Positions 130 through 3,569 of a stretch of DNA of 3,569 nucleotides are shown here, one piece after another; the first letter of the stretch is position 1; every line of letters starts with the position of its first letter. Source of the DNA: Escherichia phage MS2; the sequence record MT830620.1. One strand, 5' to 3'. A program made the translations under genes and the position numbers. Under the pieces are notes generated by a model. That model saw only the letters and a program-made list of their open reading frames with translations, was not told where the DNA came from and did not search any database.

Positions 130-1311
130 ATGCGAGCTTTTAGTGTCCTTGATAAGGAATCCGAGACCTTCGTCCCCTCCATCCGCGTTTACGCTGATGG
201 GGAGGTCGTCGATAACTCGTTTTCCCTAAAATACCGTTCGAACTGGACCCCTGGTCGATTTAACTCGACTGGAGCCAGGACGAAGCAGTGGCACTATCCG
301 TCCCCTTATTCTAGGGGTGCGCTTAGCGTCACATCGGTAGATCAAGGCGCCTATAAGCGCTCTGGGTCATCGTGGGGTCGCCCGTACGAGGAGAAAACCG
401 GTTTTGGCTTCTCACTCGACGCACGCTCCTGCTACAGCCTCTTCCCTGTGAGTCAAAATATGACTTACATTGAAGTGCCGCAGAACGTTGCGAATCGGGC
501 GTCGACTGAAGTCCTGCAGAAGGTCACCCAGGGTAATTTCAACCTCGGTGTGGCCCTCGCAGAGGCCAGGTCGACAGCCTCACAACTCGCGACGCAAACC
601 ATTGCGCTCGTAAAGGCGTACACTGCCGCTCGTCGCGGCAATTGGCGCCAGGCGCTCCGCTATCTTGCCCTAAACGAAGATCGAAAGTTTCGATCGAAAC
701 ACGTGGCAGGCAGATGGTTGGAGTTGCAGTTCGGCTGGCTACCGCTAATGAGCGATATCCAGGGTGCATATGAGATGCTCACGAAGGTTCACCTTCAAGA
801 GTTTCTCCCTATGAGAGCCGTACGCCAGGTGGGCACTAACGTGAAGTTAGATGGCCGCTTGTCGTATCCAGCTGCAAACTACCAAACCACGTGCAACATA
901 TCGCGACGTATCGTGATATGGTTTTACATAAACGATGCACGCTTGGCTTGGTTGTCGTCTCTAGGTATCTTGAACCCACTAGGTATAGTGTGGGAAAAGG
1001 TGCCTTTCTCATTCGTTGTCGACTGGCTCCTTCCTGTTGGGAACATGCTCGAAGGCCTCACGGCCCCCGTAGGATGCTCTTACATGTCAGGAACAGTTAC
1101 CGACGTAATAACGGGTGAGTCCATCATAAGCGTTGACGCTCCCTATGGGTGGACAGTGGAGAGACAGGGCACTGCTAAGGCCCAGATCTCAGCCATGCAT
1201 CGAGGGGTACAATTCGTATGGCCAACAACTGGCGTATACGTAAAGTCACCTTTCTCGATGGTCCATACCTTAGATGCGTTAGCATTAATCAGGCAACGGC
1301 TCTCAAGATAG
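130..1311 (+). CDS. mat: Maturation (A) protein, the pilus-binding, single-copy virion protein; 393 aa
   Basis: ORF 130..1311 (ATG start, UAG stop). The translation (MRAFSVLDKESETFVPS...WTPGRFNST...LALIRQRLSR) is near-identical over its whole length to the MS2 A protein as I recall it. Same position and length (393 aa) as in MS2. Confidence 0.95.
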   Translation: MRAFSVLDKESETFVPSIRVYADGEVVDNSFSLKYRSNWTPGRFNSTGARTKQWHYPSPYSRGALSVTSVDQGAYKRSGSSWGRPYEEKTGFGFSLDARSCYSLFPVSQNMTYIEVPQNVANRASTEVLQKVTQGNFNLGVALAEARSTASQLATQTIALVKAYTAARRGNWRQALRYLALNEDRKFRSKHVAGRWLELQFGWLPLMSDIQGAYEMLTKVHLQEFLPMRAVRQVGTNVKLDGRLSYPAANYQTTCNISRRIVIWFYINDARLAWLSSLGILNPLGIVWEKVPFSFVVDWLLPVGNMLEGLTAPVGCSYMSGTVTDVITGESIISVDAPYGWTVERQGTAKAQISAMHRGVQFVWPTTGVYVKSPFSMVHTLDALALIRQRLSR

Positions 1312-1727: not shown

Positions 1728-1905
1728 TAGATTCCGGCCATTCCAACATGAGGATTACCCATGTCGAAGACAACAAAGAAGTTCAACTCTTTATGTATTG
1801 ATCTTCCTCGCGATCTTTCTCTCGAAATTTACCAATCAATTGCTTCTGTCGCTACTGGATGCGGTGATCCGCACAGTGGAGACTTTACAGCAATTGCTTA
1901 CCTAA
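1678..1905 (+). CDS. lys: Lysis protein L (75 aa, single-gene lysis), +1 frame relative to coat, overlapping the coat 3' end and the replicase 5' end
   Basis: ORF 1678..1905 translates to METQSPQQSQQTPESTNRFRPFQHEDYPCRRQQRSSTLYVLIFLAIFLSKFTNQLLLSLLDAVIRTVETLQQLLT. This has the MS2 L architecture: a basic/polar N-terminal region, a hydrophobic transmembrane segment and the conserved Leu-Ser (LLLSLL) motif. Position is the same as in MS2. Confidence 0.92.
   Translation: METQSPQQSQQTPESTNRFRPFQHEDYPCRRQQRSSTLYVLIFLAIFLSKFTNQLLLSLLDAVIRTVETLQQLLT
1746..1764 (+). promoter_or_regulatory. TR translational operator hairpin (coat-protein binding site, replicase translational repressor and packaging signal): ACAUGAGGAUUACCCAUGU
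   Basis: Exact match to the canonical MS2 operator: stem 1746-1750 / 1760-1764, bulged A at 1751, G-C G-C upper stem, loop AUUA 1754-1757 (wild-type U at -5). The replicase AUG (1761-1763) lies in the 3' arm and the SD GAGG (1750-1753) in the 5' arm. Confidence 0.95.
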
Positions 1906-3398
1906 GGGATGAGTTGCTTACTAAGCATCCGTCGCTAGGTAATGGTAATGACGAGGCGACCCGCCGGGCTTTAGCTATCGCTAAGCTCCGGGAGGCGAAT
2001 GAGCGATGTGGCCAGATTAATAGGGAAGGTTTCCTACATGACAAATCCTTGTCATGGGATCCGGATGTTTTACAAACCAGCATCCGTAGCCTTATCGGCA
2101 ACCTTCTTTCTGGTTATCGCTCGTCGTTGTTTGGGCAATGCACGTTCTCCAACGGTGCCTCAATGGGGCACAAGTTGCAGGATGCAGCGCCTTACAAGAA
2201 GTTCGCTGAACAAGCAACCGTTACCCCCCGCGCTCTGAGAGCGGCTCTACTGGTCCGAGACCAGTGTGCGCCGTGGATCAGACACGCGGTCCGCTACAAC
2301 GAGTCATATGAATTTAGGCTCGTCGTAGGGAACGGAGTGTTCACAGTTCCGAAGAATAACAAAATAGATCGGGCTGCCTGCAAGGAGCCCGATATGAATA
2401 TGTACCTCCAGAAGGGAGTCGGCGCCTTTATAAGACGTCGCCTCAAATCTGTGGGTATAGACCTGAATGATCAGACGATCAATCAGCGTCTAGCTCAACA
2501 AGGCAGCATAGACGGCTCATTAGCGACGATAGACCTATCGTCAGCTTCTGATTCCATCTCTGACCGCCTGGTATGGAGTTTCCTCCCACCTGAGTTATAT
2601 TCATATCTCGATCGTATCCGCTCCCACTACGGAATCGTAGATGGAGAGACGGTACGATGGGAACTATTTTCCACAATGGGAAATGGGTTTACTTTCGAAC
2701 TAGAGTCCATGATATTTTGGGCTATAGTGAAAGCAACTCAAATCCATTTTGGTAACGCCGGAACCATAGGCATCTACGGGGACGATATTATATGTCCCAG
2801 TGAGATTGCACCCCGTGTGCTAGAGGCACTTGCCTACTACGGTTTTAAACCGAATCTTCGTAAAACGTTCGTGTCAGGGCTCTTTCGCGAGAGCTGTGGC
2901 GCGCACTTTTACCGTGGTGTCGATGTCAAACCGTTCTACATCAAGAAACCAGTTGACAATCTCTTCTCCCTTATGCTGATCATGAATCGGCTTAGGGGGT
3001 GGGGCGTTGTCGGAGGTATGTCAGATCCGCGCCTTTATAAGGTTTGGGTACGACTGTCCTCCCTGGTTCCATCGATGTTCTTCGGTGGGACGGACCTTGC
3101 TGCCGACTACTATGTAGTAAGCCCTCCAAATGCTGTCTCAGTTTATACAAAGACTGCGTATGGTAGGTTACTCGCGGATGCCCGTACCTCGGGTTTCCGT
3201 CTTGCTCGTATCGCCAAAGAGCGAAAGCACTTTAGCGAGAAGCATGACAGTGGTCGCTACATAGCATGGTTCCATACTGGAGGTGAAATCACCGATAGTA
3301 TGAAGTCCGCTGGCGTGCGCGTAATGCGCACTTCGGAGTGGCTGACGCCGGTTCCCACATTCCCTCAGGAGTGTGGGCCAGCGAGCTCTCCTCGGTAG
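1761..3398 (+). CDS. rep: RNA-dependent RNA polymerase (replicase beta subunit), 545 aa
   Basis: ORF 1761..3398. YGDD catalytic motif at nt 2775-2786 (GTIGIYGDDIICP). The sequence MSKTTKKFNSLCIDLPRDLSLEIYQ... matches the MS2 replicase as I recall it; same coordinates as in MS2. The stop codon UAG is at 3396-3398. Confidence 0.96.
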   Translation: MSKTTKKFNSLCIDLPRDLSLEIYQSIASVATGCGDPHSGDFTAIAYLRDELLTKHPSLGNGNDEATRRALAIAKLREANERCGQINREGFLHDKSLSWDPDVLQTSIRSLIGNLLSGYRSSLFGQCTFSNGASMGHKLQDAAPYKKFAEQATVTPRALRAALLVRDQCAPWIRHAVRYNESYEFRLVVGNGVFTVPKNNKIDRAACKEPDMNMYLQKGVGAFIRRRLKSVGIDLNDQTINQRLAQQGSIDGSLATIDLSSASDSISDRLVWSFLPPELYSYLDRIRSHYGIVDGETVRWELFSTMGNGFTFELESMIFWAIVKATQIHFGNAGTIGIYGDDIICPSEIAPRVLEALAYYGFKPNLRKTFVSGLFRESCGAHFYRGVDVKPFYIKKPVDNLFSLMLIMNRLRGWGVVGGMSDPRLYKVWVRLSSLVPSMFFGGTDLAADYYVVSPPNAVSVYTKTAYGRLLADARTSGFRLARIAKERKHFSEKHDSGRYIAWFHTGGEITDSMKSAGVRVMRTSEWLTPVPTFPQECGPASSPR

Positions 3399-3430: not shown

Positions 3431-3495
3431 GTGCTCGAAAGAGCACGGGTCCGCGAAAGCGGTGGCTCCACCGAAAGGTGGGCGGGCTTCGGCCC
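3431..3495 (+). other. 3' UTR cluster of four small tetraloop hairpins: three GNRA (GAAA) and one UUCG
   Basis: Direct inspection: GUGCUC-GAAA-GAGCAC (3431-3446), CCGC-GAAA-GCGG (3451-3462), CCACC-GAAA-GGUGG (3468-3481), GGGC-UUCG-GCCC (3484-3495). Consistent with the highly structured levivirus 3' UTR, which holds replicase recognition elements. Confidence 0.7.
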
Positions 3496-3538: not shown

Positions 3539-3569
3539 GGTAACTAGCTGCTTGGCTAGTTACCACCCG
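3539..3569 (+). other. 3' terminal hairpin (10-bp stem GGUAACUAGC 3539-3548 / GCUAGUUACC 3555-3564, loop UGCUUG) followed by a single-stranded 3' tail ACCCG
   Basis: Perfect inverted repeat seen directly. The levivirus 3' end is a terminal hairpin plus an unpaired ...CCC(A) tail used for replicase initiation; here the last base is G. Confidence 0.8.

Follow-up and report, generated by a model that had tools for sequence, protein, structure and literature searches.

Genome layout and the start of the maturation gene

The stretch of DNA analysed here, which we call the window (3569 nt, sequence record MT830620.1), is a complete levivirus genome, a plus-strand RNA of ~3.57 kb with the gene order of MS2. 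All features described below lie on the plus strand. The maturation (A) protein gene occupies 130-1311 and encodes 393 aa (Pfam PF03863 Phage_mat-A, E 8e-202); it is followed by the coat gene (1335-1727; Pfam PF01819 Levi_coat), the overlapping lysis gene (1678-1905; Pfam PF11125 Phage_MS2_lysis) and the replicase gene (1761-3398; Pfam PF03431 RNA_replicase_B). The coat-protein operator hairpin lies at the replicase start (1729-1764; Rfam RF02359, 60.6 bits, gathering score 40, E 5e-13), and its presence confirms the MS2-group identity of the genome. The maturation protein is identical to NCBI QNI21284.1, deposited as 'maturation protein [Escherichia phage MS2]'. Exact look-up of the window's coat and maturation proteins in an assembly index returned no contig carrying either.

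In the phage collection, the best matches to the window were DL16 (95.3%), DL1 (95.2%), FrSaffron (94.8%) and J20 (94.6%); no exact match was found there, the top identity being 95.3%. Nucleotide identity to the MS2 reference is 92.0%, to R17 92.3% and to fr 77%, and the values against MS2, R17, M12, DL1, DL16 and J20 span 92.0-95.3%. Gene order, whole-genome identity and the operator hairpin all place the genome in Emesvirus zinderi. We read the window as a natural MS2-group phage of levivirus genogroup I.

Two observations concern the 3' end of the genome. A cluster of nine differences between the window and the 3' UTR of NC_001417, at 3451-3463, is unique to that reference record: ST4, the 'ancestral' laboratory MS2, a JGI MS2 contig, R17 and DL16 all match the window, and J20 is one base apart. 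The cluster probably goes back to the 1976 MS2 sequence, as an old error or a local shift. In addition, the last base of the window, 3569, is a G (...ACCACCCG), whereas all nine relatives that reach the 3' end (the MS2 reference, ancestral MS2, ST4, R17, DL16, DL1, J20, DL52 and fr) finish in ...ACCACCCA. Since levivirus RNA normally receives its terminal A from the replicase, the G is probably an artefact of end determination or assembly.

The maturation gene opens with an AUG initiation codon at 130-132, the first start codon of ORF 130-1311, and the annotated maturation coding sequences of DL16, J20, R17 and MS2 have coordinates equal to those of the window. The Shine-Dalgarno sequence AGGAGGU (SD; 116-122) is evident in the sequence itself, with the 7-nt spacer UUGACUC between it and the AUG, and is invariant across all MS2-group genomes aligned. 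The window reads ...AGGAGGTTTGACTC-ATG at its start; the MS2 reference (NC_001417/V00642), at equal coordinates, reads ...AGGAGGTTTGACCT-GTG. Written as RNA, the initiation contexts are AGGAGGUUUGACUC-AUG in the window and AGGAGGUUUGACCU-GUG in MS2, and three changes relative to MS2 separate them: C128U, U129C and G130A. The first two make up the UC dinucleotide of the spacer (128-129; CU in MS2, ST4 and R17), which accounts for the only differences from MS2 and R17 in the 129-nt 5' UTR; leader bases 1-127 are identical to those of MS2. The initial annotation had given GACCU GUG for MS2 against GACUC AUG in the window, with a difference in the two bases just upstream of the start, and the reference record confirms both points.

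The start codon across the MS2 group

A test against chance is meaningless for one codon, the relevant test being a comparison across strains. We therefore compared 14 deposited records of the MS2 group with the window by alignment over its first 200 nt. AUG was present in 11 of the 14 and GUG in three. Ten genomes share the window's GACUC-AUG without a change: DL16, DL1, J20, LT898437 (the German isolate GER_K20), FrSaffron, FrHenna, FrBlood, DL52, JP501 and M12. R17 combines AUG with the CU spacer (GACCU-AUG), and its genome is 96.6% identical to that of MS2. GACCU-GUG was confined to the MS2 reference, the 'ancestral' laboratory MS2 (MS2anc) and ST4, the last of which is 98.9-99.1% identical to the other two. 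Further afield, fr and an fr-like contig start with GUG, and GA, which lies outside the MS2 subgroup, starts with AUG. Of the references named in the initial annotation, M12 and R17 thus have AUG, and MS2 and fr have GUG. The comparison bore out one of the options offered by the initial annotation, a natural strain difference, since the closest natural MS2-group genomes have AUG.

We also searched public assemblies, taking contigs by their membership in the cluster of the window's maturation protein. This recovered 11 MS2-like contigs, one of them from IMG/VR, all at least 99.2% identical to laboratory MS2; the nine that extend to the start codon all have GUG. These contigs (L017, L020-L024 and L026-L030; 99.2-100% identical to laboratory MS2) come from many unrelated public runs plus the one IMG/VR entry, a distribution consistent with spike-in or process-control MS2 rather than environmental phage. 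The sole divergent environmental contig, L025 (Logan SRR27716070), carries GACUC-AUG; its identity is 94.2% with the window and 91.5% with MS2. It represents an apparently undeposited phage of the DL/J clade, whose identity with the window and with six compared relatives does not exceed 94.2%. Another contig, L019 (Logan SRR27710284), is an fr-like phage, 91.1% identical to fr, with a GUG start; it too is apparently undeposited. Neither the initiation region nor the invariant leader gave a match when metagenomes were scanned, and viral-contig scans by DNA pattern and by protein returned MS2 itself only.

GUG was therefore seen only in MS2 and ST4, in contigs at least 99.2% identical to laboratory MS2, and in the distant fr lineage. 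Within the laboratory lineage it appears to be stable. When a probe with the MS2 background and A130 was compared with ~230 laboratory MS2 records, the full-coverage matches listed were all 98.4% identical, a value consistent with one mismatch at the start codon and hence with a stable GUG. Two laboratory MS2 records at 99% or more to this probe are probably the two partial matches.

To ask which codon is derived, we built a whole-genome neighbour-joining tree, bootstrapped with 200 replicates and rooted on fr. MS2 and ST4 group together in 200/200 bootstraps, R17 joins them as sister in 200/200, and M12 with JP501 joins these in 188/200; the DL, J, Fr and window lineages fall outside this clade. 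All lineages that branch before MS2/ST4 carry AUG. Because MS2 and ST4 are nested inside AUG lineages, GUG is, on this tree, a derived state that arose within the MS2 subgroup by one A-to-G transition on the MS2/ST4 branch. By the same reading, the CU spacer was derived slightly earlier and is common to the R17 and MS2 clade (200/200). At the species root the start codon is ambiguous, fr and the fr-like L019 having GUG and GA having AUG; parsimony with GA as outgroup would make AUG ancestral, an argument of little weight in view of a GA leader that is not alignable. One strain in the comparison stands apart in its overall identity: DL52 is 85-87% identical to most strains and 90.8% to DL16 over the whole genome, a pattern in keeping with a recombinant replicase region, as has been proposed for this strain (PMC3499819).

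These comparisons lead us to conclude that, among the genomes aligned, AUG is the majority natural state of the MS2 group, that the AUG of the window is ordinary strain variation, and that a GUG start does not define the group. Behind the same structured leader, nearly all natural phages of the group have AUG. The GUG of the A-protein gene is peculiar to the lineage of laboratory MS2 (and, separately, to fr) and is not part of a conserved design. In substance, AUG in an MS2-group maturation gene was already known from deposited genomes and from the R17 sequence; Steitz (1969) reportedly found AUG in the R17 A-protein initiator region, and our literature searches on the start codon of the maturation gene gave nothing specific. 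The importance of the result is small: it corrects an impression drawn from the MS2 reference strain, and the site at 130-132 needs no special flag in a genome scan.

Leader folding and maturation-protein synthesis

The maturation gene is controlled by the structure of its leader and by folding kinetics (review PMC6071253). In the window, the 5' untranslated leader (1-129) is predicted to form a 5' hairpin (1-28) and three further hairpins (37-73, 74-100 and 102-114) that lie inside a long-range interaction between the upstream complementary sequence (UCS; 29-36) and the SD region (116-123), which closes a cloverleaf. Bases 1-135 fold into one structure, with a minimum free energy (MFE) of -60.2 kcal/mol, in the window, R17 and MS2. 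The 29-36/116-123 pairing appears in the MFE and ensemble folds of bases 1-135, 1-200 and 1-400, and the cloverleaf with its UCS-SD pairing also appears in the RNAalifold consensus; in the folded leader, the predicted probability that the SD is unpaired is ~0. Comparative support for the UCS-SD helix comes from fr only, because bases 1-127 are invariant within the MS2 group: in fr, the pair at alignment columns 29/126 is compensated on both sides (A-U to G-C), and two further changes are one-sided. Of the features of MS2-type maturation control, the predicted fold of the window thus has the UCS-SD helix and the three-hairpin cloverleaf, and the start codon is AUG in place of GUG.

A 49-codon ORF (80-229) also begins in the leader; its AUG lies inside the second leader hairpin and is conserved in all strains but M12, which has UUG. 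It has no Pfam match and no evident SD and is probably not a gene; in the fr-like L019, a gene caller fused its AUG in frame to the maturation gene to give a 409-aa product.

Work from the van Duin laboratory (Groeneveld, 1995; Poot, 1997; van Meerten, 2001) is said to have defined UCS-SD kinetic control, in which the interaction reportedly blocks initiation at equilibrium and permits it on nascent strands only. Because leader bases 1-127 are identical to those of MS2, we infer that initiation works in the window as it does in MS2. In the folded RNA the SD would be paired with the UCS (29-36 with 116-123), closing the three-hairpin cloverleaf, and ribosomes would load only on nascent plus strands that have not yet folded. 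The main translational brake is thus predicted to be intact. AUG as opposed to GUG would then be a secondary modulator of a small loading window and not the main limiter of maturation-protein yield. In silico, exchanging UC-AUG, CU-AUG, CU-GUG and UC-GUG shifted the MFE by no more than 1.4 kcal/mol, and the SD was always paired. A local hairpin of 3 bp (127-129 with 134-136) was dismissed; it appears in the 160-nt fold only and is absent from longer folds.

The best explanation of the data, to which we assign a probability of roughly 0.93, is that the window is a natural MS2-group genome with the group-standard AUG context, that GUG and CU are derived, and that initiation is MS2-like with the codon playing a secondary part. 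The prevalence of AUG behind this leader supports the established view that RNA folding, rather than codon strength, dominates the limit on maturation-protein synthesis. The suggestion in the initial annotation that GUG helps to hold A protein at about one copy per virion is correspondingly weakened, as most of the group uses AUG.

The codon may nevertheless have some effect. Measured with reporters in E. coli, the canonical alternatives GUG and UUG reach 10-100% of the initiation obtained with AUG (bioRxiv 10.1101/063800). Each opportunity may therefore yield somewhat more A protein with AUG than with the GUG of MS2. A several-fold higher A-protein yield in the window than in MS2 is conceivable. 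A stronger form of the idea is that AUG, together with the UC spacer, is a meaningful up-regulation that would give more maturation protein per nascent strand than in MS2, with an effect on assembly or infectivity, and that the GUG of MS2 would be an adaptive down-tuning. GUG is in general the weaker initiator in E. coli, as the reporter range indicates, and its retention hints that the two codons are not freely interchangeable: it is kept in the full-coverage matches listed among the ~230 laboratory MS2 records, and across ~9% divergence in the fr lineage. However, all natural lineages sampled from the MS2 subgroup have AUG, as does R17, so close to MS2, and we saw no change that would compensate for it: the leader is identical and the SD is predicted to stay sequestered. 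We also considered whether AUG strains compensate with a stabler helix at the start codon (described below) or a less accessible SD. This idea was rejected: the duplex energies, -6.8 to -10.5 kcal/mol, overlap with no trend between AUG and GUG strains, and therefore give no sign of compensation, and the small MFE changes in the in silico exchanges also count against it. We consider a meaningful up-regulation unlikely. With the SD-sequestering leader unchanged and AUG present in R17 as well, any effect on expression would be a modest modulation at most.

A further idea concerns the start codon itself. Folding 400 nt of the window, of R17 and of MS2 pairs bases 124-131 (the end of the spacer with the A and U of the start codon) with 362-369, inside the maturation gene; the putative 3' arm at 362-369 was inferred from these folds, and the helix also appears in the RNAalifold consensus. 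The three changes at the initiation site all keep the pairing: U128.G365 and C129-G364 in the window correspond to C128-G365 and U129.G364 in MS2 and R17, and A130-U363 corresponds to G130.U363 in MS2. The transitions at 128, 129 and 130 thus exchange U.G for C-G, C-G for U.G and A-U for G.U. Variants of the 3' arm, A369G (M12 and JP501) and C368U (JP501), also keep the pairing, and the only break in the MS2 subgroup is A363 in FrSaffron. In the alignment, 93.9% of cells are paired, with one-sided, pairing-keeping variation in five of the seven pairs. The count on the RNA alignment gave no double compensatory change in the pairs of this helix, whereas an adjacent helix has three, all from fr. 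In fr itself, two of the eight tabulated pairs are kept, so that the helix is not conserved there in register, and fr's own folds are unstable, the partners of the start region changing with the length folded.

Transitions are more common than other mutations, and the sequences in which they occur are the ones that gave the structure; for these reasons the modelled helix is suggestive only. We think it distinctly improbable that this second long-range helix occludes the start codon beside the UCS-SD clamp and limits 128-130 to transitions that keep pairing. If it did so, RNA structure would shape the AUG/GUG polymorphism no less than initiation strength does. The serine codon for residue 78 of the maturation protein (361-363) falls within the putative 3' arm. 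It is UCU in the window and in the DL, J and Fr strains (UCA in FrSaffron) and AGU in MS2, ST4, R17, M12 and JP501, a switch that takes at least two substitutions by way of a non-serine intermediate.

Origin of the sequence and comparison with known phages

We return to the reading of the window as a natural MS2-group phage with an MS2-like leader. The initial annotation had raised the alternative that the AUG marks an engineered MS2 or infectious-clone derivative; in such a construct, the start codon would have been strengthened deliberately. Two weak points speak for it: the record is labelled 'Escherichia phage MS2', and the G at base 3569, in place of the otherwise universal A, could be a cloning or end-determination artefact. 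An engineered clone should be nearly identical to laboratory MS2, and the window, at 92.0%, is not. It has 289 coding differences from MS2, spread over all genes (102 substitutions in the maturation gene, 30 in coat, 10 in lysis and 147 in replicase) and concentrated at third codon positions, which take up ~75% of them (76/102 in the maturation gene and 113/147 in replicase). Amino-acid changes relative to MS2 number 14/393 in the maturation protein, 4/130 in coat and 21/545 in replicase. Such a pattern is what long natural divergence under purifying selection leaves behind.

Several other results point away from a clone. The nearest relatives are the environmental isolates DL16, DL1 and J20 (94.6-95.3%), and the 5' UTR is identical to that of the natural phages DL16 and J20; the maturation protein was deposited as a phage protein; and UC-AUG recurs in 10 independent natural genomes. 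Vector sequence is absent and the 5' end is native (GGGUGGGACC). No insertions relative to the relatives were found, nor any scars of vector, linker or restriction sites at the ends or junctions. The clone origin thus finds no support, and we give it almost no credence. An error of sequencing or assembly in MT830620.1 alone, for which we see no specific point in favour, is just as implausible and is ruled out because ten genomes sequenced independently, and a Logan assembly, carry the identical 8-mer GACUCAUG.

The window is best understood beside its named relatives. Closest are DL16 (EF108464), DL1 (EF107159), J20 (EF204939), FrSaffron, FrHenna and FrBlood (PP430139-41) and LT898437, which have the window's gene order and coordinates, an identical or nearly identical 5' UTR, AGGAGGUUUGACUC-AUG and 94.4-95.3% genome identity; they differ from the window by 4.7-5.6% scattered, mostly synonymous substitutions. 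R17 (EF108465) also has AUG at 130, with identical SD and spacing and a leader identical apart from 128-129. Unlike the window, it has the CU spacer of MS2, and its genome, 92.3% identical to the window, belongs to the sister clade of MS2. MS2 itself (NC_001417/V00642) has in common with the window bases 1-127, the predicted cloverleaf with its UCS-SD pairing, the four genes and the operator hairpin, but has GACCU-GUG where the window has GACUC-AUG, in a genome that is 8% divergent. Most distant are fr (X15031) and the fr-like L019, which fall in the same species-level group, with the same gene order and a largely conserved cloverleaf leader, yet start at CCUCGU-GUG and CCUCAC-GUG, respectively, have GGGAG in the SD region and are ~77% identical to the window.
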